A stretch of DNA of 37,564 nucleotides from Neisseriaceae bacterium (GTDB lineage Bacteria; Pseudomonadota; Gammaproteobacteria; Burkholderiales; Neisseriaceae), in the NCBI GenBank assembly GCA_017553165.1, contig JAFZMY010000106.1, positions 1-37,564 on the forward strand. The letters run 5' to 3'. Shown here piece after piece: positions 1-8,462 of the stretch (position 1 is its first letter; every line of letters starts with the position of its first letter). The notes under the pieces are model-generated. The model saw nothing but the letters and a program-made list of their open reading frames with translations, had not been told where the DNA came from and searched no databases. The translations under genes were made by a program, and so were the position numbers.

Positions 1-57
1 ACCTGCTGATGATATAGCAATTGCTACTATCATAGCTATAATTTTTTGTGCTTTCAT
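1..57 (-). CDS. N-terminal fragment (leaves the window) of a second copy of the secreted toxin-like protein
   Basis: The reverse complement of 1-57 reads MKAQKIIAMIVAIAISSAG. That is 18/19 aa and 53/57 nt identical to the start of the 824..1633 gene (1577-1633). An AGGAAG Shine-Dalgarno (reverse complement of 68-73) lies 10 nt upstream of the ATG at 57-55. The ORF is open to the window edge, so it is absent from the ORF track. Confidence 0.6.
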   Translation of the reverse strand, partial: MKAQKIIAMIVAIAISSAG

Positions 58-96
58 TATTTTAAAACTTCCTATACTTTTACACTGCCGGAAAGC

Positions 97-759
97 TTAA
101 ATATCTTCCCACTTAATCCAATAATCTATCATTTCCGGCAGACGGTTATTACTGCATATGGCTTTAAAATCTTTATCATCAGCTTCAATAGTTAACCAAT
201 CATTTTGCGTTTCATCACCAATGGAAATATTTAGTTCTGATTTATCATATTCTCCATCGATAAGTAATTCCCAAGCACAATTATCAATTGTTTTTAATGT
301 CATTCCTGTTCCATGATTATCCCAAGCTAAATCGATAGCCCACAATTCACCACGATATTCTAATGATTGAATGGCAAATTTAATAAAAAACCATTTTTGT
401 AGAAAATGTAAAAAACCATCTCTAAAATTTAATGGTATTTCTTCAAAATCTAACCATTTTACAAAATGATAAATTAAATCTGGAAAATTAATACGACCAG
501 AGTAAGCTTCAAATGAATTTTCATTTGCATTAATAACTATCCAATTATCATTATTTACCAATGGATTAAGTTCATCAACTATTCTTAATGGAGTACCTTC
601 ATCAATATAATCAAATTGAAATATCTGTTTATTTTTTTCTCCATTGACTTCTAATTTCCAACCTGGATTATCAACATTATCTAATGTGAAACTGCATTCA
701 CTATTATCTTTATACCATTTTTGTAATAAATTAATAAAATACATATTATATCCATACAA
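97..759 (-). CDS. two-domain Imm53-like immunity protein, candidate cognate of the 269-aa toxin-like protein
   Basis: Intact 220-aa ORF lying directly downstream (minus strand) of the toxin-like gene. It has an internal duplication. Repeat 1 is LLQKWY...LDNVDNPGWKLEVNGEKNK...NDNWIVINA...FPDLIYHFVKW. Repeat 2 is FLQKWF...CAWELLIDGE...NDWLTIEA...CSNNRLPEMIDYWIKW. The W..W/DNPGW/DW.I/..W pattern matches what I recall of the Imm53 family. There is no signal peptide. The first codon at 759 is TTG, and the ATG at 744 is an alternative start. Confidence 0.55.
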   Translation of the reverse strand: MYGYNMYFINLLQKWYKDNSECSFTLDNVDNPGWKLEVNGEKNKQIFQFDYIDEGTPLRIVDELNPLVNNDNWIVINANENSFEAYSGRINFPDLIYHFVKWLDFEEIPLNFRDGFLHFLQKWFFIKFAIQSLEYRGELWAIDLAWDNHGTGMTLKTIDNCAWELLIDGEYDKSELNISIGDETQNDWLTIEADDKDFKAICSNNRLPEMIDYWIKWEDI

Positions 760-791
760 TAATATTCATTGAATTATATTGATATTATCTT

Positions 792-821
792 AAAAACAAA
801 GGGATTTACCCCTTTGTTTTT
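792..821. terminator. strong bidirectional-looking hairpin between the toxin-like gene and its immunity gene
   Basis: AAAAACAAAGGG (792-803) pairs with CCCTTTGTTTTT (810-821), giving a 12-bp stem and a 6-nt loop. A/T runs flank it on both sides. It starts 3 nt after the TAG stop of the 269-aa gene (824-826). Confidence 0.6.
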
Positions 822-823
822 AA

Positions 824-1633
824 CTATTTTCCCCTTTTTCTAATACCTTGTGCTGATTGAAGTTGTTGCTTTAATAATCTATCTGCTATACGAATATCTT
901 GATTTGTTGCAGCCTTGATTTCGCCATTGTTATTTAAAAATACTTTACCATCTTGTGGACGAATATTTCTTGTAAGCCATTGAGAATGTGGCGTTTCTAT
1001 TTGTGTATTTGTTTTTTTGTTTGTTGTATGTGCTCGACCACGTAAGTCTATACGACCACTTCTTTCTGCAGTATTAAATCTAACCGAATTGGTGTTGTAT
1101 TTTTTCGCAACATCTTCTGCCATTTGTTTTGTAGTTTTAGGAGCGTAATTTGTTGTAGTATTTGCAATCTTTTTGGTGTTATTTACAGTATTTACCGCAT
1201 TCGTAGTCTTTTTAGTGTTACTCACCGCTTTGGTAACTTTTGCAACGGCTTCCACCTTTTTCACTGTACCAATAGCAGAACCACCTGGAATTGCAGAAGT
1301 AGCACCTTCAATAGCACCTGCTTTTGCGACTTCCTTAACGCTTGCAGGTTCTCCGGTTTTAGCATAGCTTTCGCCATGTTTCATCCACATTCCAAAGGCA
1401 ATTGCACCCAATCCAATGGCAACAAGCGGTAAAAACTCGCCCTCTGTTTCCTGCATTTCTTGCTTGGACAGTTCCACCGCTTGTATTTTGTGGTTATTGT
1501 CTACATCAAATACTTTGCTGTTAAAGGCTTTTTTTGCCTGTACTGCATTGGGACGAGTTGTTACTTCTTTGGCAAAACCTGCTGATGATATAGCAATTGC
1601 AACTATTGTTGCTATAATTTTTTGTGCTTTCAT
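824..1633 (-). CDS. secreted or membrane-anchored polymorphic-toxin-like protein with a basic C-terminal domain of unknown fold
   Basis: Intact 269-aa ORF with a GAGGA RBS. It has a Sec-type signal peptide (MKAQKIIATIVAIAISSAGFA/KE) and a Gly/Ala-rich hydrophobic segment (LPLVAIGLGAIAFGMWM, then GAIEGATSAIPGGSAIG). A Lys/Thr/Asn/Ala low-complexity linker follows. The last ~95 aa form a basic domain (NSVRFNTAERSGRIDLRGRAHTTNKKTNTQIETPHSQW...). The N-terminus is duplicated at 1-57, and an immunity-type gene lies immediately downstream. That it is coding is near certain; the toxin function is inferred. Confidence 0.5.
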   Translation of the reverse strand: MKAQKIIATIVAIAISSAGFAKEVTTRPNAVQAKKAFNSKVFDVDNNHKIQAVELSKQEMQETEGEFLPLVAIGLGAIAFGMWMKHGESYAKTGEPASVKEVAKAGAIEGATSAIPGGSAIGTVKKVEAVAKVTKAVSNTKKTTNAVNTVNNTKKIANTTTNYAPKTTKQMAEDVAKKYNTNSVRFNTAERSGRIDLRGRAHTTNKKTNTQIETPHSQWLTRNIRPQDGKVFLNNNGEIKAATNQDIRIADRLLKQQLQSAQGIRKRGK

Positions 1634-1796
1634 TAAAAAATCCTCATTATTTATTTAATATACAATAAGTTACTTTGATTTCACTCAACGTAACTTGCGA
1701 TGTGTGTGATGCATCACGTGGCTAAATTTACAAGCAAAATATTTGTCAAAGCAAGGAGTACTTTTAAAAATTTTATTGCTTAAAAAGTAATCAAGC

Positions 1797-1812
1797 AAAA
1801 AAAAAAAAAAAA
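1797..1812. repeat. A16 homopolymer (T16 on the coding strand of the flanking genes)
   Basis: Counted directly: a at 1797-1800, 1801-1810 and 1811-1812, followed by CAAAACAA. It lies 12 nt after the stop of the 131-aa ORF and 164-179 nt upstream of the toxin-like gene's ATG. Confidence 0.95.
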
Positions 1813-1824
1813 CAAAACAATATG

Positions 1825-2220
1825 TTACAAATTCGCCAAGTGTTGTATTTTGACAACATGCGAAGTGGCTTGTGTTAGATAGTAAATATACTCACTATTC
1901 CATAAATAAGATAAATTAGCATAAATATCGGTTTTACCAGTTAAACCATAACGCAATCCCACATTACCCAATAGCATATCATTATTGCTATTAGTTTGTG
2001 AAAAAACTGTTGGTATTGCCACCAATGAATGATTAGTAGTTTCAATATAAACAGGTTGCGAAACAGAATTATTTTGTTGCTCACTATTAGCATAAGTTAG
2101 ATTAGCTTCTAATTTAAATTTACCCTTATCGGTATAAAGTTCTTCTAAACTTAAAGGCAAATCTGCCCATAAATTAGTAGAACACAAAAATGCAAAAACA
2201 AATAAAAAACGTTTATTCAT
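1825..2220 (-). CDS. signal-peptide protein resembling the N-terminal part of an outer-membrane beta-barrel, probably a truncated remnant
   Basis: 131-aa ORF with a signal peptide (MNKRFLFVFAFLCSTNLWA/D). It shows alternating beta-strand-like segments (KFKLEANLTYANSE, LLGNVGLRYGL, TDIYANLSYLW). This pattern is typical of small OM barrels or MetA-pathway-type transporters, which are usually about twice this length. There is no C-terminal aromatic residue. All frames downstream are closed. AAGGAA RBS. Confidence 0.4.
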   Translation of the reverse strand: MNKRFLFVFAFLCSTNLWADLPLSLEELYTDKGKFKLEANLTYANSEQQNNSVSQPVYIETTNHSLVAIPTVFSQTNSNNDMLLGNVGLRYGLTGKTDIYANLSYLWNSEYIYYLTQATSHVVKIQHLANL

Positions 2221-2242
2221 ATATTTTCCTTATAAATTTTCA

Positions 2243-2857
2243 TTAAATACTTACCCAATGTATAGCATAATCAAATGCTTTAATTAATCTATTATTACTA
2301 CACGTACATTCAAATACTTGATGATTAAATTCTTGAATATTTGAATTAATAAAAATCCAATCATCATCAGAATTTTTAATTTTTATATCAATAATATCTT
2401 TATTTTTTTCACCATTAATACGTATTTTCCAAGCAAAAGAATCTAAACTATCAACATGAAAACCATAACAATGTTCCCAATCTCCATTACATTTTGAATT
2501 ATACCATTTTTGCATAGAAGTTAACAAATCAATATTATCTATGCAATAAGTATTATAATCAGTAATCCATTGAATAAAATAATTAAATAACTCTGGAAAT
2601 CTATTATTACTGCAATAACCATTAAATTCATTTGATGTGGCTTTAATTGAAATCCAATCATTATCATCTTCTGGATTATCAAAAAATATTTTTATATCTT
2701 TTTTATTAATTTCACCATTTACTTCTATAAACCAACCAGGATTATCTAAATTACCTAAATGAAAATTTAAATTTTGTTTAATATTTTTATTGTATTTAGA
2801 ATTACACCAATCTTGTAAAAATTTAACAGTATTGTTTTTCATATTTTTATAATCCAA
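2243..2857 (-). CDS. two-domain Imm53-like immunity protein with no adjacent toxin gene (orphan)
   Basis: 204-aa ORF with two repeats. Repeat 1 is FLQDWCN...LGNLDNPGWFIEVNGEINK...DNDWISIKA...CSNNRFPELFNYFIQW. Repeat 2 is MQKWYNSKCNGDWEHCYGFHVDSLDSFAWKIRINGEKNK...DDWIFINS...CSNNRLIKAFDYAIHW. The WY..CNGDWEH..G and LDNPGW motifs are the Imm53 signature as I remember it. It is roughly 30% identical to the 220-aa paralogue. TTG start. Confidence 0.6.
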   Translation of the reverse strand: MDYKNMKNNTVKFLQDWCNSKYNKNIKQNLNFHLGNLDNPGWFIEVNGEINKKDIKIFFDNPEDDNDWISIKATSNEFNGYCSNNRFPELFNYFIQWITDYNTYCIDNIDLLTSMQKWYNSKCNGDWEHCYGFHVDSLDSFAWKIRINGEKNKDIIDIKIKNSDDDWIFINSNIQEFNHQVFECTCSNNRLIKAFDYAIHWVSI

Positions 2858-2904
2858 TATTACTTTTAATCAACAAGGTGAATATTATTTCACCTTTTGT
2901 TTGT

Positions 2905-2933
2905 ACTATATATTTAACATAAGAAAAATTCAA
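2905..2933 (-). promoter_or_regulatory. possible sigma70 promoter for the 204-aa / 131-aa gene pair
   Basis: The minus strand reads TTGAAT (reverse complement of 2928-2933), a 17-nt spacer, then TATAGT (reverse complement of 2905-2910). An 8-bp hairpin (2875-2882 / 2889-2896) sits in the predicted leader. Confidence 0.3.
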
Positions 2934-3028
2934 TTTTTGTTCCGAGATACTCCCATTCCTCTTTTGATAATACCTTGTGGAAACCCCTGCAAAACCCCAA
3001 ATTTTTTAGCAAAAATGTGTTAAAAAAA

Positions 3029-3047
3029 TTTTCAGGCAGCCTGAAAA
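3029..3047. other. subterminal hairpin inside the IS whose two strands read as DUS 12-mers of other Neisseriaceae dialects
   Basis: TTTTCAGG-CAG-CCTGAAAA forms an 8-bp stem. The plus strand contains AGGCAGCCTGAA (3034-3045), and the minus strand of 3031-3042 reads AGGCTGCCTGAA. A related hairpin, TCAGGC-TTTTT-GCCTGA, lies at 3128-3144 just after the transposase stop. Confidence 0.4.
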
Positions 3048-3146
3048 TGAGAATTTTCTCAATTTCATCGAAAAATGGGCAAAAAACAGCGAAAAACAGT
3101 CATTTTTACCCCCAAATCCGCTTATTTTCAGGCTTTTTGCCTGATT

Positions 3147-4163
3147 TTAGGCGTAGTACGGCATAAGTTGTCCTACGCAATGCAATTTATTTGCCGCTTT
3201 CAGTAGATTCGCACAGATTGCTTTTAGCAAAAACTGACCTTCGCATTTTTTCAAGCCAAAGTAACTCGACCGTTTGCCGCCGAAAATGCGGTGTATTGTG
3301 CCGAATGTGCGTTCAACCACATAGCGAGTTTGCGTTAATTTTTTGTTGCGTTGTAGTTGAGCGTCCGTCAAAGGCGTACCTTTCTTCACCTTATCCATAA
3401 TTCCATTTTTCAAACCACGATTTTTTAAGTGATTGCGGTTCTCTTCACTACAATAACCCTTATCCGCATAAACCATTGTATTTTCAGGTAAATCATCTAA
3501 CAGCGGAGCAAAATTTTTGGTATCACTCTCGTTTGCAGGTGTGCCGTAGGCTTTACCCACAAAACCCTCCTCATCAACTATATTGTGCATTTTGAAACCC
3601 AACTTCCACTTACCATATTTCTTCTGCCAGCCAGCGTCTTGGTCTTTGCACAGCGTATATTCAACGGCGTTGCCGTCTTTATCTTCTTCAATGACTTTGT
3701 TATATTTACTTGCCGCCGTTTGAATAATGGTTGCGTCAATAATCGCCGTATCTGCATTTTTGACTTTCAAGCCATATTCTTCTAATTGACGATTGATTTC
3801 ATCTAACAATTTACTCAATAAACCATTATCTATCAAAAAGTTACGAAAACGCCCCAAAGTTGTTGCATCAGGAATTTCCATATCATCAAAACCACAAAAC
3901 AGCATAAAATCATTACGAACCGCCAAAGAATATTCCAACGCTTCGTCCGATAAAGAATGTCATTGACCTAATATAACCGCTTTCAACATAGCAATCGTAT
4001 CATAAGGCGGACGACCACCTTTGTCGTAAGAAACTTGCTTAACTTCTTGAACAATCAATAAAATCTTTTTCCAGTTAATCAGTATGTTAATCTTCAACAA
4101 AGGCGATTTCTGTGCATACCGCTCCATTTTGTCCTTAACCGTCTGCATAAAAAAACTGCTCAT
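3147..4163 (-). pseudogene. IS5-family transposase interrupted by one in-frame TGA (3960-3962)
   Basis: ORFs 3960..4163 and 3147..3938 are in the same frame. The junction reads ...AVILGQ*HSLSDEALEYSLAVRNDF.... In IS5/InsH-type transposases this motif is LLQQW(F/Y)NLSD, so the TGA replaces a conserved TGG Trp. The N-terminal part has the GRPPYD motif (DUF772-like). The C-terminal part is a DDE domain (IIDAT..., YADKGY..., ERTFG). Confidence 0.75.
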
Positions 4164-4241
4164 CTTTAATCCTACCGAAATTCGTAACTTATTGAATTAT
4201 AACAAGTTTGTGATTTTGTGTCAAGCAAATTATAAATAAAA

Positions 4242-4381
4242 TCAATAGGTTAGTAAATTAAACCAAAATGGTTGATGAAAAGTGAAAAAGGGGTTTTGCA
4301 GGGGGTTCATAAAGTCAATGGGTTAGTAAATTAAACCAAAATGGTTGATGAAAAGTGAAAAGGGGGTTTTGCAGGGGGTTC
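4242..4381. repeat. tandem duplication of the IS right end (2 x 67 bp, period 73 bp)
   Basis: 4242-4308 and 4315-4381 (TCAATRGGTTAGTAAATTAAACCAAAATGGTTGATGAAAAGTGAAAARGGGGTTTTGCAGGGGGTTC) differ at only 2 positions. Confidence 0.85.
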
Positions 4382-4488: not shown

Positions 4489-4548
4489 GTTTTGCAGGGG
4501 TTTCTCAAAATGACAAATAAAATAAAAGTAGGTTTTGCAAAGGTTTCA
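4489..4548. repeat. two further solo right-end TIR copies in the same orientation
   Basis: GTTTTGCAGGGGTTTC (4489-4504) is the perfect reverse complement of the IS left TIR at 2980-2995. TTTTGCAAAGGTTTCA (4533-4548) is identical to the right end of the MITE at 10489-10504. Confidence 0.6.
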
Positions 4549-4609: not shown

Positions 4610-5929
4610 TTACTGTAAAGATACTTCTACACGGCGTGCTTCTGCTTCTGCACCGGCATCAGTACTTTCAGGTTTTTTAAGGTCAATTACGTCTTCTGGA
4701 ATGCCTAATTCAAGCAAAGTTTTTTGGACTGACATTGCACGCTGTTTTGCTAATTCAGCATTTTGTGCAGCATCGCCAGATGCGTCATGGAAACCAGAAA
4801 TTACAACTTTTTTACCTTCGGCAACACCTGCAACAATAGCTGCGAGTGATTCGGCGGCATCAGCAGATAAATCTTGGCTACCAGATGCAAAGTAGAATTT
4901 AACCACGCCATCATCACCTACAACAACGCTGTTTTCATCAGCAGCAGGAGTTGCTGCTGTATCCTCAGCCGGTGTAACAGCTGGTGCTGGGTCTTTGCTG
5001 TGGTCAGATAAGCCCCATACGTATGCAGTTAAGATACGTAATTTGGCAGTATCATCACCATCAACCAAGAAGTTTTCCCATTTGGGCATTTCATTGGTAT
5101 GACCTTGTCTAATGGTATTTATGATGTCTTGTTCACCAGCTCCCCATAACCAAACATTGTCGGTTAAGTTAGGTGCTAAACCTGTTAAACCTTTACCGTC
5201 ATCTTGGTGGCAAGTAAAACAGATTTGATCATAAATTAGCTTACCTTTAGCTACACGGTCTTCAATGGCTTTGCTACGGAATGCTTCATTTTCATTCAAA
5301 GACAGTACGTAATGAGCAACATTACGAACTTCGTCTTCTGGGAATGGTTCTAAACCACCGTATGCAGGCATGCTACCAATACGACCGTAACGAATGGTCT
5401 CTTCGATTTCTTCTGGAGAACCACCCCATAACCAATCGTTATCAGTCAAGTTAGGGAAACCAATCGCACCTTTTGCATCAGAGCCATGGCACTGAATACA
5501 GTAAGTGTTGAATAGGTTTTGACCGATAACTTTTGCTTCTGAATCTTTTGCAATTTCTTCAATAGATTTATTAGCAAATTTGTTATAAATCGGTTGATAT
5601 TGTGCTTTTGCTTCTGCTACTTCATTCTCATAACGATTGGCACTTGTCCAACCTTTGAGACCTTTGAATGATGAAAAGCCTGGATATAGAGTTAAATAAG
5701 CTATACCGAAAACAACGGTAATAATAAACAGATAGAACCACCAACGGGGTAGGGGATTGTTGTATTCCTCAATTCCGTCCCATTCGTGTCCCATTGTTTC
5801 AACCTTGTCGCCTGTTCTTTTGGTTTTGTTTTGAGAAACTAACAGCCAAACCAAACCAATGAAACTGGCGATCACGATCACTGCTGTATAGATAGTCCAG
5901 AAATTACTGGTGAAATCTGATGTATTCAT
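4610..5929 (-). CDS. ccoP: cbb3-type cytochrome c oxidase subunit III (dihaem CcoP) with a C-terminal OmpA-like domain
   Basis: 439 aa. It has an N-terminal TM helix, the PLPRWW motif and two haem c sites (CIQCH, CFTCH). An Ala/Pro/Thr linker follows. The C-terminal ~100 aa fit the OmpA_C pattern (VKFYFASGSQDL...VVISGFHDASGD..QNAELAKQRAMSV...LGIPEDVI...RRVEV). It lies in ccoN-O-Q-P order. Confidence 0.9.
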   Translation of the reverse strand: MNTSDFTSNFWTIYTAVIVIASFIGLVWLLVSQNKTKRTGDKVETMGHEWDGIEEYNNPLPRWWFYLFIITVVFGIAYLTLYPGFSSFKGLKGWTSANRYENEVAEAKAQYQPIYNKFANKSIEEIAKDSEAKVIGQNLFNTYCIQCHGSDAKGAIGFPNLTDNDWLWGGSPEEIEETIRYGRIGSMPAYGGLEPFPEDEVRNVAHYVLSLNENEAFRSKAIEDRVAKGKLIYDQICFTCHQDDGKGLTGLAPNLTDNVWLWGAGEQDIINTIRQGHTNEMPKWENFLVDGDDTAKLRILTAYVWGLSDHSKDPAPAVTPAEDTAATPAADENSVVVGDDGVVKFYFASGSQDLSADAAESLAAIVAGVAEGKKVVISGFHDASGDAAQNAELAKQRAMSVQKTLLELGIPEDVIDLKKPESTDAGAEAEARRVEVSLQ

Positions 5930-8344: not shown

Positions 8345-8462
8345 GTGGTATATTTTATAACAAACTATATCCACAAACCAACAGAAACCTTCAAGTGAGA
8401 TAGAAAAGTTCTGGTGGATTGCAATGTGCTATCAAGGTTATAGAAATTGGCTTTATTTTATT

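Follow-up and report, generated by a model that had tools for sequence, protein, structure and literature searches.

A small toxin–immunity array in a rumen Neisseriaceae bacterium and its probable link to a Nap (FapF/FapD-like) export pathway

Polymorphic toxins are classed by the way in which they are delivered, that is, by type V secretion and contact-dependent inhibition (T5SS/CDI), by type VI secretion (T6SS/Rhs-PAAR), by type VII secretion (T7SS/LXG), as MafB proteins or by extracellular contractile injection systems (eCIS), and small toxins that carry only a signal peptide form a residual class without a known outer-membrane route. How such a toxin might leave the cell is the question raised by a locus at the left end of contig JAFZMY010000106.1 of a Neisseriaceae bacterium (assembly GCA_017553165.1; the whole stretch analysed, 37,564 nt, is called the window), which belongs to a lineage of rumen Neisseriaceae relatives. 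The minus strand of this locus encodes a toxin-like protein of 269 amino acids (aa) with a Sec signal, next to proteins of the immunity family Imm53. In the original prediction, made from the sequence alone, the locus was taken for an undescribed toxin/immunity system with no delivery machinery. The toxin/immunity reading is supported and is accepted here, toxicity and neutralisation being predictions, and the locus is best viewed, with reasonable likelihood, as a rearranged and partly decayed toxin–immunity array of the Nap (FapF/FapD-like) export pathway.

The central gene (824..1633, minus strand) encodes a pre-protoxin composed of a signal peptide, a Nap-type leader, a Gly-rich module, a linker and an Ntox24-like C-terminal domain (CTD), and is followed by its putative cognate immunity gene (97..759, minus strand), a tandem Imm53 without a signal peptide. 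Among 5.8 billion proteins searched, only eight homologues of the 269-aa protein were found, whose named sources are uncultured rumen Neisseriaceae metagenome-assembled genomes (MAGs), one of the contigs coming from a sheep-omasum MAG; a 99% identical copy is present in another sample. Six of these homologues (P0002-P0006 and P0008) are 84-87% identical to the window toxin over residues 1 to ~150-165 and then continue into unrelated C-termini, the exception being P0007, which has the same C-terminus as the window toxin and an overall identity of 51%. At the DNA level (BLASTN), homology among the paralogous cassettes extends from ~240 nt 5' of the ATG to window positions 1129-1148 (codon ~165), a breakpoint that lies where the switch between a trafficking region and a toxin cassette is expected. 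An exhaustive HMMER search (1.84 billion representatives) also splits the 269-aa protein into two independent modules: residues ~3-150 match small Sec-signal proteins of 80-220 aa, and the CTD (residues ~160-257) matches the extreme C-termini of ~60 proteins that are 94-3006 aa long.

The N-terminal module starts with a Sec signal peptide, read from the sequence, that lacks a lipobox cysteine (residues 1-21, MKAQKIIATIVAIAISSAGFA followed by KE; 1571..1633, minus strand). Further on lies a double-glycine-like leader (E54-L-S-K-Q-E-M-Q-E-T-E-G65-E66; 1436..1474, minus strand), a candidate site for recognition and cleavage by a C39 peptidase, followed by Gly/Ala-rich hydrophobic helices (residues 67-125; 1259..1435, minus strand) that bear a W83..H86..T93-G94 signature and the pair G117-G118, invariant among the rumen paralogues. 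A low-complexity linker rich in T, N and K (residues 126-165; 1139..1258, minus strand) closes the module, and the homology between paralogues stops at its 3' side. The small proteins of the family share with the window toxin the Sec signal, a spacer, the motif [LM]-[ST]-x-x-E-M-x-[ED]-T-[EQ]-G-[EAKS]-h-x-P (in short form ELSxxEMxETxG) and a Gly/Ala-rich hydrophobic stretch with W..H..SY..TG.PAS, the motif being found in about 45 of the ~50 matches to the N-terminal domain (50%-identity representatives). Residues A21 (the signal-peptide cleavage site), F42, L55, E59, M60, T63, G65 and P69 are invariant in an alignment of 18 sequences (A2) that takes in NapB of N. lactamica. The leader spacing, L-S-x2-E-M-x2-T-x-G-x, parallels that of the double-glycine leaders cut by C39 peptidases (LSxxELxxIxGG), and two members of the family pass TIGR03949 (class IIb bacteriocin, lactobin A/cerein 7B) exactly over the leader and are named accordingly by NCBI. 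A full-length AlphaFold2 (AF2) model of low confidence (predicted local distance difference test, pLDDT, 58.7, and below 50 for residues 109-164), used solely for the order of the segments, places helices at residues 49-64, 69-93 and 99-113, with a break at G65. Pfam and NCBIfam searches gave no family for this module, the weak matches to DUF3842 and to a BRANT signal region being uninformative, and the label PF28279, precomputed for some members, is not in the Pfam copy that was searched.

The leader is closely associated with two genes of an export apparatus, napF and napP. Metagenome contigs of the Joint Genome Institute (JGI) were retrieved by the motif alone (69 loci), and their open reading frames (ORFs) were then scanned with NapF and NapP sequences. 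A NapF-like gene was found in 60 of the 69 loci, nearly always as the gene directly upstream of the motif-bearing one, in the same orientation and mostly no more than about 50 nt away, and a NapP-like gene was found downstream in 47; both are present in 45, and the loci that lack them are mostly on contigs too short to hold them. A profile search collected 414 members of the family, whose database labels are hypothetical, 'integral membrane protein', 'wall-associated protein precursor' or 'class IIb bacteriocin'; they come from Neisseria (N. meningitidis, N. sicca, N. cinerea, N. dentiae, N. musculi, N. weixii and N. yangbaofengii), Methylotenera, Collimonas and Thiodiazotropha. In 212 distinct proteins with the motif, the part that begins with it has a median length of 103 aa, and 60 of these proteins have tails of at least 45 aa beyond the Gly-rich module; the tails fall into 26 unrelated clusters, suggesting that the leader is a trafficking module for many different C-termini. 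The long NapB of N. lactamica, as printed in supplement S2 of PMC11798529, starts with MKKQITAAMMLSMITPAMANGLDNQAFEDQVFHTRADAPMQLAELSQKEMKETEGE, which is the same module as that of the window toxin.

The 131-aa ORF that lies upstream of the toxin gene in the window (1825..2220, minus strand) is a truncated napF, the gene of a FapF-like outer-membrane channel: its homology covers residues 1 to ~108 of ~290 (1896-2220), and the rest of the ORF is read-through into the upstream region of the toxin cassette. It is 54% identical to residues 11-138 of a 293-aa outer-membrane protein (OMP) of a related locus, L002 (TBLASTN, with which alignment A4 agrees), where a toxin-Imm53 pair is followed by this beta-barrel OMP and then by a 212-aa C39 peptidase with its own signal peptide. 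The peptidase matches PF03412 (5.8e-27) and the NCBIfam models FapD (1e-29) and FilB (2e-23) and contains, besides the signal peptide, an SCGAAS cysteine motif. Since NapF and NapP as printed in S1/S2 of PMC11798529 align directly with the proteins of L002 and of another locus, L008, and the window ORF aligns with NapF, the OMP and peptidase genes of L002 are assigned by sequence to napF and napP of the Neisseria nap island. NapF is described as a FapF homologue by Poncin et al. 2025 (PMC11798529), and the sole significant matches in the PDB of a profile built from 20 NapF-like proteins are the FapF structures 5o67, 5o65 and 5o68 (E 2e-5). In the Fap system of Pseudomonas, FapC, which is exported by Sec, depends on the periplasmic C39 peptidase FapD and on the catalytic cysteine of that enzyme to be secreted through FapF (Rouse et al. 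2017, PMC5557850). The view that the locus has no delivery machinery was thus not upheld, because the 131-aa ORF is the 5' third of napF and the N-terminus of the toxin is a NapF/NapP cargo module, with the synteny given above.

An intact FapF-like gene lies next to the cargo in L002, L008 and L081 (the last from N. meningitidis), and the window copy is truncated at codon ~108. The gonococcus has a short napF allele at the nap island and a long allele elsewhere (PMC11798529), and for this reason truncation alone does not mean that the pathway has been lost; export in the source organism would need intact napF and napP elsewhere in the genome, because napF is truncated in the window and napP is absent from it. 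The order Imm53-napF in the window is that of L002 and L007, napF being replaced after codon ~108 by the upstream region of the cassette (1876-1634). A related arrangement was noticed in P0094 (294 aa), in which the first ~45 mature NapF-like residues are joined directly to a leader-bearing cargo; this may be a cargo cassette that replaces most of napF, as in the window and the gonococcus, or an artefact of assembly or gene calling.

The CTD (residues 166-269; 827..1138, minus strand) ends six residues or fewer from the C-terminus in most of its ~60 relatives, which include RHS-repeat proteins (P0086, P0067 and P0046), a TcdB/SpvB protein (P0091) and an eCIS-core protein (P0101), and its invariant residues are D196, L197, G199, H202, T214, P215, H216 and R248. 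The Pfam family Ntox24 (PF15529) scores 18.0 bits with the full protein and 21.4 bits with the isolated CTD, so that its gathering threshold of 24 is not reached, and it is the only Pfam family matched by more than one relative of the CTD (9 of 39 at E<=0.01, best 2.3e-4, all sub-threshold). Compared with the 'Y, H, H' given for Ntox24 by Zhang et al. 2012, the CTD has invariant histidines (H202 and H216) and no invariant tyrosine. An AF2 model of the CTD (pLDDT 88.8) consists of a helix, seven strands and a long C-terminal helix, an alpha+beta and not an all-beta fold, for which a Foldseek search brought up no relative, either in the PDB (best E 0.05, TM 0.31) or in BFVD. A sequence match to PDB 8fjf ('H10') was rejected as spurious, this being a three-fold repeat protein matched over the first helix-strand only. 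The CTD is described here as Ntox24-like, a sister or divergent clade suggested by sub-threshold matches and not a proven member of the family, and its activity is probably that of a nuclease; Ntox24 itself is perhaps a metal-independent RNase, with Imm50 and Imm53 as its immunity partners (Zhang et al. 2012, PMC3482391). Some versions of Ntox24 belong to type II toxin-antitoxin modules, a class ruled out for the window protein by its Sec signal and its ~165-aa N-terminal trafficking region. As the C-terminus is Ntox24-like and Imm53 is listed for Ntox24 by Zhang et al. 2012, the pair can no longer be called undescribed, and on its sequence it is a divergent member of a kind already predicted (Ntox24-like toxin plus Imm53).

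Two Imm53 genes are present in the window, the one that follows the toxin and an orphan one upstream of napF (2243..2857, minus strand). Their likely true starts are the ATGs at 744 (215 aa) and 2842 (199 aa), which is supported by the genes called on L004, a contig from another sample, where the Imm53 lengths are exactly 199 and 215 aa. Imm53 (PF15580) scores 98.5 bits with the 199-aa protein and 62.7 bits with the 215-aa protein against a cut-off of 25, in two stretches each; the halves are 26-41% identical to each other, and the motifs NPGW and W..WE/W..W are visible in both translations. The immunity gene appears to follow its toxin: P0007, which shares the window CTD, is followed in L002 by a tandem Imm53 with 69% identity to the 215-aa protein of the window and only 30-32% to the other; P0013, with an unrelated N-terminus, is followed by a single-domain Imm53, and P0011 by the start of an Imm53-like ORF, so that Imm53 lies directly 3' of this CTD in the window and in three further contexts with differing N-termini. 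Paralogues with other C-termini are followed by ORFs that are not Imm53, namely a 196-aa ORF after P0005, an 81-aa acidic ORF after P0006 and an overlapping ORF after P0003. As judged from these sequences, the immunity gene co-varies with the toxin CTD, and the homologues do have immunity-family neighbours (Imm53 in L002, L079 and L080). The grammar of polymorphic toxins that had been invoked for the locus therefore holds, with an N-terminus kept to ~165, unrelated C-termini in the homologues, a CTD that is also found in Rhs, TcdB and eCIS toxins and a co-varying Imm53. An 86-aa single-domain Imm53 in L007 (1365-1625) seems to have arisen from the tandem form by internal deletion, as ~30 residues at its start match domain 1 of the L002 and window proteins and ~55 at its end match domain 2.

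These elements can be joined into a route in which the pre-protoxin would cross the inner membrane by Sec, NapP would recognise the amphipathic leader helix and cut at or just after G65 (or, alternatively, at G117-G118), and the product would pass in unfolded form through NapF to the cell surface or into the medium. It would then enter related cells, perhaps by means of its Gly-rich helices, and the CTD, probably a nuclease, would kill those without the cognate cytoplasmic tandem Imm53. New toxin/immunity pairs would arise by recombination at two conserved borders, napF being one and the stretch from the 240-nt upstream region through codon 165 the other. The modular build, the C-terminal polymorphism, the linkage of the CTD to Imm53, the homology of the N-terminal module and the synteny with napF and napP are all directly visible in the loci compared. 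The whole chain, from Sec through cleavage by NapP and export by NapF to entry and killing, is held to be somewhat more probable than not; the identity of the parts of the locus is much more secure, and for cleavage by NapP and export through NapF the chances are about even.

Several observations weigh against this route. No match to napP was found in the 37.5-kb window and napF is truncated there, so this copy may not be exported; napP may lie beyond the left edge. L001 has no napF within 8.6 kb upstream of its toxin. The processing of Naps by NapP and NapF is only proposed by Poncin et al., and synthetic Nap peptides showed no antibacterial activity (PMC11798529). E or K frequently occupies position -1 of the motif, and neither is typical of C39 substrates. 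The Ntox24 match stays below the Pfam threshold and the predicted fold is without a solved relative, the toxicity of the CTD being a prediction only.

Some of these same facts would suit a toxin exported by Sec only (the 'T2SS' class) and released by general secretion, vesicles or lysis, with the N-terminal module as an anchor or entry domain, NapF and NapP serving other cargo and their adjacency reflecting a recombination hotspot. For Ntox24 toxins, a plain signal peptide is a listed means of export (Zhang et al., PMC3482391), and the hydrophobic helix 69-93 of the AF2 model could be a transmembrane anchor; the truncation of napF in the window, in an arrangement that is yet stable in two samples, and the lack of napF within 8.6 kb in L001 would be of no consequence to such a toxin. 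However, the motif occurs with napF in 60 and with napP in 47 of the 69 loci, from Neisseria to Collimonas and Methylotenera, which is hard to account for without a functional link, and its invariant L, S, E, M, T and G keep the spacing of C39 leader peptides, so release by Sec alone is considered unlikely. The decay of the locus would itself be the main point if the array delivered nothing and were a silent store, in which Imm53 protects from the toxins of neighbours and the cassettes are recombination substrates like orphan cdiA-CT/cdiI or mafB-CT. This would agree with the probable destruction of one toxin by an insertion sequence (IS) of the IS5 family that left its Imm53 intact, with the truncation of napF at codon ~108, with the absence of napP from 37.5 kb, with a second toxin copy that lacks the conserved upstream region and with the collapsed single-domain Imm53 of L007. 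It is nevertheless judged improbable, since the first toxin copy is full-length, with signal peptide, leader and conserved 240-nt upstream region, and is not a cassette of the C-terminus only, since a 99% identical protein exists in another sample, and since the gonococcus also keeps a short napF at the nap island, with the long allele elsewhere (PMC11798529).

A further explanation dispenses with the interbacterial toxin: the protein could act on its producer (autolysis) or on host cells, or the Gly-rich module could build a surface fibre like the Fap amyloid or the putative Fil pilus, Imm53 having another role. Synthetic Nap peptides spared competitors and promoted autolysis and haemolysis (PMC11798529), and among NCBIfam models NapP comes closest to FapD (amyloid) and FilB (putative pilus). 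But the CTD is common to Rhs, TcdB and eCIS toxins, in which it is always C-terminal, a cytoplasmic Imm53 follows it and co-varies with it in four contexts, and Q/N-rich amyloid repeats are lacking, which leaves this explanation very little credence. The preferred reading is that of an interbacterial toxin of the NapF/NapP route.

From this reading a wider proposal follows, which is put forward tentatively and falls slightly short of an even chance: a Sec signal followed by the ELSxxEMxETxG leader may define a new trafficking class of polymorphic antibacterial toxins, processed by NapP, exported by NapF and found widely in Neisseria, N. meningitidis among them, as well as in further beta- and gamma-proteobacteria, a class of which the nap island would be a decayed member and NapR an orphan immunity protein. 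In the full-text literature outside subscription journals, neither a Sec signal with an internal double-glycine-like leader as a trafficking domain of polymorphic toxins nor a conserved bracketing of such toxins by napF and napP was found. The Ntox24-Imm53 pairing has already been predicted, and the napF/napP export genes were described in 2025 with other cargo and with a mechanism taken over from Fap (PMC11798529); it is the link between the two of which no description was found in that literature. The evidence ties one class of small signal-peptide-only toxins to a two-gene apparatus (a FapF-like barrel and a periplasmic C39 peptidase) and to a leader motif, and it provides a searchable signature, more than 400 proteins carrying the module. 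It also offers a testable mechanism, points to possible substrates and a possible recognition motif of periplasmic C39 peptidases, and gives a different reading of the gonococcal and meningococcal nap island; it bears, too, on how strains compete in the rumen and the human nasopharynx. If the wider proposal is true, small polymorphic toxins would have a general delivery route that no classification has yet included.

The nap island of N. gonorrhoeae and N. meningitidis (Poncin et al. 2025, PMC11798529) is the closest known system. The same FapF-like NapF is present, to the first ~108 residues of which the window ORF aligns, the same periplasmic C39 peptidase NapP occurs in the relatives L002 and L008, and the cargo has the same N-terminus, the long NapB of N. 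lactamica being composed of a signal peptide and ELSQKEMKETEGE; like the window, the gonococcal locus carries a truncated napF allele, cargo inserted as AT-rich DNA, and homopolymer tracts. The published cargo, however, consists of short cationic peptides without antibacterial activity that are interpreted as autolysis factors, whereas the window leader carries a ~100-aa nuclease-like domain followed by Imm53, with polymorphic C-termini. The paper predicts cleavage at C-terminal GG sites, and in its accessible part the Sec plus ELSxxEMxETxG module is not described. The array of the rumen lineage also lies upstream of napF and not between napF and napP. The Fap system of Pseudomonas (PMC5557850) follows the same two-step logic, with Sec, a Sec-exported C39 peptidase needed for secretion and a dedicated beta-barrel, and the likeness extends to sequence (NapF profile against FapF structures, E 2e-5; NapP against the FapD model, 1e-29). 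It differs in that NapF has ~290 aa, the Nap cargo are not amyloid repeat proteins, and a conserved leader-like motif is evident in them, whereas FapD has no such defined cleavage site.

The Ntox24-Imm53 pairs of Zhang et al. (PMC3482391) share with the window pair the C-terminal placement of the toxin domain, the conserved histidines, the presence in Rhs and other carriers and an Imm53 directly downstream. They differ from it in that the window CTD and its ~60 relatives remain sub-threshold, Imm53 is a tandem duplication and the trafficking module falls outside the catalogue of these authors (T2SS signal only, T5SS, T7SS, MuF). Class II microcins and class IIb bacteriocins have the same leader, L-S-x-x-E-[LM]-x-x-[IT]-x-G-x, followed by a GxxxG-rich hydrophobic peptide and processed by C39 peptidases, although in the family of the window toxin a Sec signal and a spacer of 20-40 aa come before the leader, which is thus internal, NapP is a free periplasmic C39 protein of 212 aa and not the N-terminal domain of an ABC exporter, and exit is proposed to occur via a FapF-like barrel and not via TolC. 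No ABC exporter was found among the genes called next to the cargo in L002, L008 and L081. A double-glycine bacteriocin exported by a peptidase-containing ABC transporter was considered and ruled out by the internal leader after the Sec signal and by the stand-alone C39 protein. MafB proteins are reportedly Sec-signal polymorphic toxins of Neisseriaceae arrayed with immunity genes and alternative C-termini, as Jamet et al. 2015 are said to have described. The window toxins resemble them in having a Sec signal, in being polymorphic and in being arrayed with immunity genes, but they are much smaller and their conserved neighbours are napF and napP. The window toxin has no Pfam match to DUF1020 or the MafB N-domain at E<=1, no mafA was seen in the region examined, and the lack of MafB, CDI, Rhs, LXG and PAAR hallmarks already remarked on at this locus is confirmed, such modules having been considered and excluded for the toxin.

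Leader-bearing cargo is organised in several ways at other loci. The order is napF, cargo (P0010), three small ORFs and napP in L008 and L009, and toxin (P0006), 81-aa ORF, single Imm53 and napF in L007. In L081 of N. meningitidis, napF comes after the pseudouridine-synthase gene at the flank of the nap island and is itself followed by three leader-bearing proteins that have different toxin-like C-termini and a small ORF after each, with napR, napC, a napA-like gene and napH interspersed. The 82-aa NapR (L081 5469-5717), a putative regulator according to Poncin et al. 2025 (PMC11798529), is encoded directly 3' of one leader-bearing protein, P0182, whose C-terminus is WapA/DUF4258-like. The rumen protein P0006 has a C-terminus of the same family as P0182 (40% identity, E 8e-10), and the 81-aa acidic ORF after it (L007 1037-1282) is weakly similar to NapR (27%, E 0.03). 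This NapR-like ORF after P0006, together with the position of NapR after P0182, suggests that NapR may be an immunity protein. Other leader-bearing proteins (L081 7028-7976 and 9308-10200; L008 8001-8896) have further conserved C-termini, such as RIAPFGNRTGHPIGKFPHYHRR, a type with 14 members in the sample, from human-associated Neisseria, and an ORF for a cytoplasmic protein of ~120 aa follows each leader-bearing protein; as neither partner has a Pfam family, these pairs in L081 and L008 are candidate new toxin/immunity families.

The arrangement of the window locus itself is well founded. The minus-strand ORFs lie where they had been placed (2857-2243, 204 aa; 2220-1825, 131 aa; 1633-824, 269 aa; 759-97, 220 aa; and a gene start at 57-1), and since L004, from a separate sample, shows the same gene order at 99.8% identity over 4.2 kb, this arrangement is not due to chance. 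The description of a tandem toxin/immunity array needs some restriction, because all its features are real but the window holds a single complete toxin-Imm53 pair: the upstream Imm53 is an orphan, and the downstream toxin ends at the window edge after 19 codons (MKAQKIIAMIVAIAISSAG; 1..57, minus strand). A pairwise comparison reproduced the near identity of the two toxin starts (53/57 nt, 18/19 aa, with unrelated upstream sequences), and the ~30% identity given for the two Imm53 proteins was measured as 32%. The second start is 93% identical to the toxin starts of L001, L006 and L007, and it is not preceded by the conserved upstream region of the first copy. The higher AT content of the block is also real (GC 0.24-0.35 in 1-3000, against mostly 0.32-0.44 elsewhere, with two 1-kb bins near 0.30). 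For the leftward extension of the array, exact-sequence look-ups of the 269-aa and 220-aa proteins gave nothing, L004 stops at the same Imm53, and a search of genome contigs with the N-terminal domain returned only the sheep-omasum MAG contig already found.

The region 5' of the complete toxin gene (1634..1876, minus strand), the conserved upstream (promoter/5' untranslated) region of the cassette, is 82-86% identical in L001, L006 and L007 and contains the A16 tract that had been remarked on (1797-1812, T16 on the minus strand). The T-tract has 16 residues in the window, 17 in L004 (2640-2656), 11 in L006 (~620-630) and 9 in both L001 (~8440-8450) and L007, a variation that could reflect slipped-strand phase variation, which is common in Neisseriaceae, or assembly noise. 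A promoter scan found 17 sites against 19.8 in shuffled sequence and no convincing promoter relative to the T-tract; because the sites are not above those of shuffled sequence, no promoter role is claimed for it. Terminator-like hairpins are more frequent than expected in 1-3000 (6 sites against 1.0), and the strong hairpin noted before, which has a GC-containing 14-bp stem and is terminator-like on both strands, lies between the toxin stop and the immunity gene (790..823).

A hairpin in the equivalent position is found 5' of the orphan Imm53 (2875..2896), preceded by what may be the 3' remnant of a toxin gene, 16 codons with the tail (P)QGIIKRGMGVSRNKN* that abut the end of the IS5 element (2930..2979, minus strand; compare the intact tail SAQGIRKRGK*). 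The match is short, and the interpretation of 2930-2979 as a remnant is suggestive only, but the tail and the hairpin after it indicate that the toxin once paired with the 199-aa Imm53 was probably lost to IS5. The element (2980..4308, minus strand), whose position next to the block had been recognised, matches NCBIfam IS5_4 (5e-53) and is bounded by 19-nt inverted repeats (2980-2998 and 4290-4308), and its transposase is split into two ORFs (4163-3960 and 3938-3147). An in-frame TGA interrupts the transposase at 3960-3962, and two genes (67 aa and 259 aa) are called in L004 too. At the right end of the element, a segment of ~65-73 bp that takes in the inverted repeat occurs twice in tandem (4244-4308 and 4317-4381), and further 16-19-mers that resemble the inverted repeat are present between the IS and ccoP (4489-4504 and 4531-4547). 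The rest of the window is ordinary chromosome, with ccoNOP, uppP, the gene of PBP4, aroC, cysE, comM, tamA/tamB, lnt, ligA, zipA, aroB and dnaG. Within it, CcoP/FixP (4610-5929, minus strand) contains a C-terminal peptidoglycan-binding domain of the OmpA family (PF00691, 7e-13, residues 346-416), which is possibly an unusual fusion.

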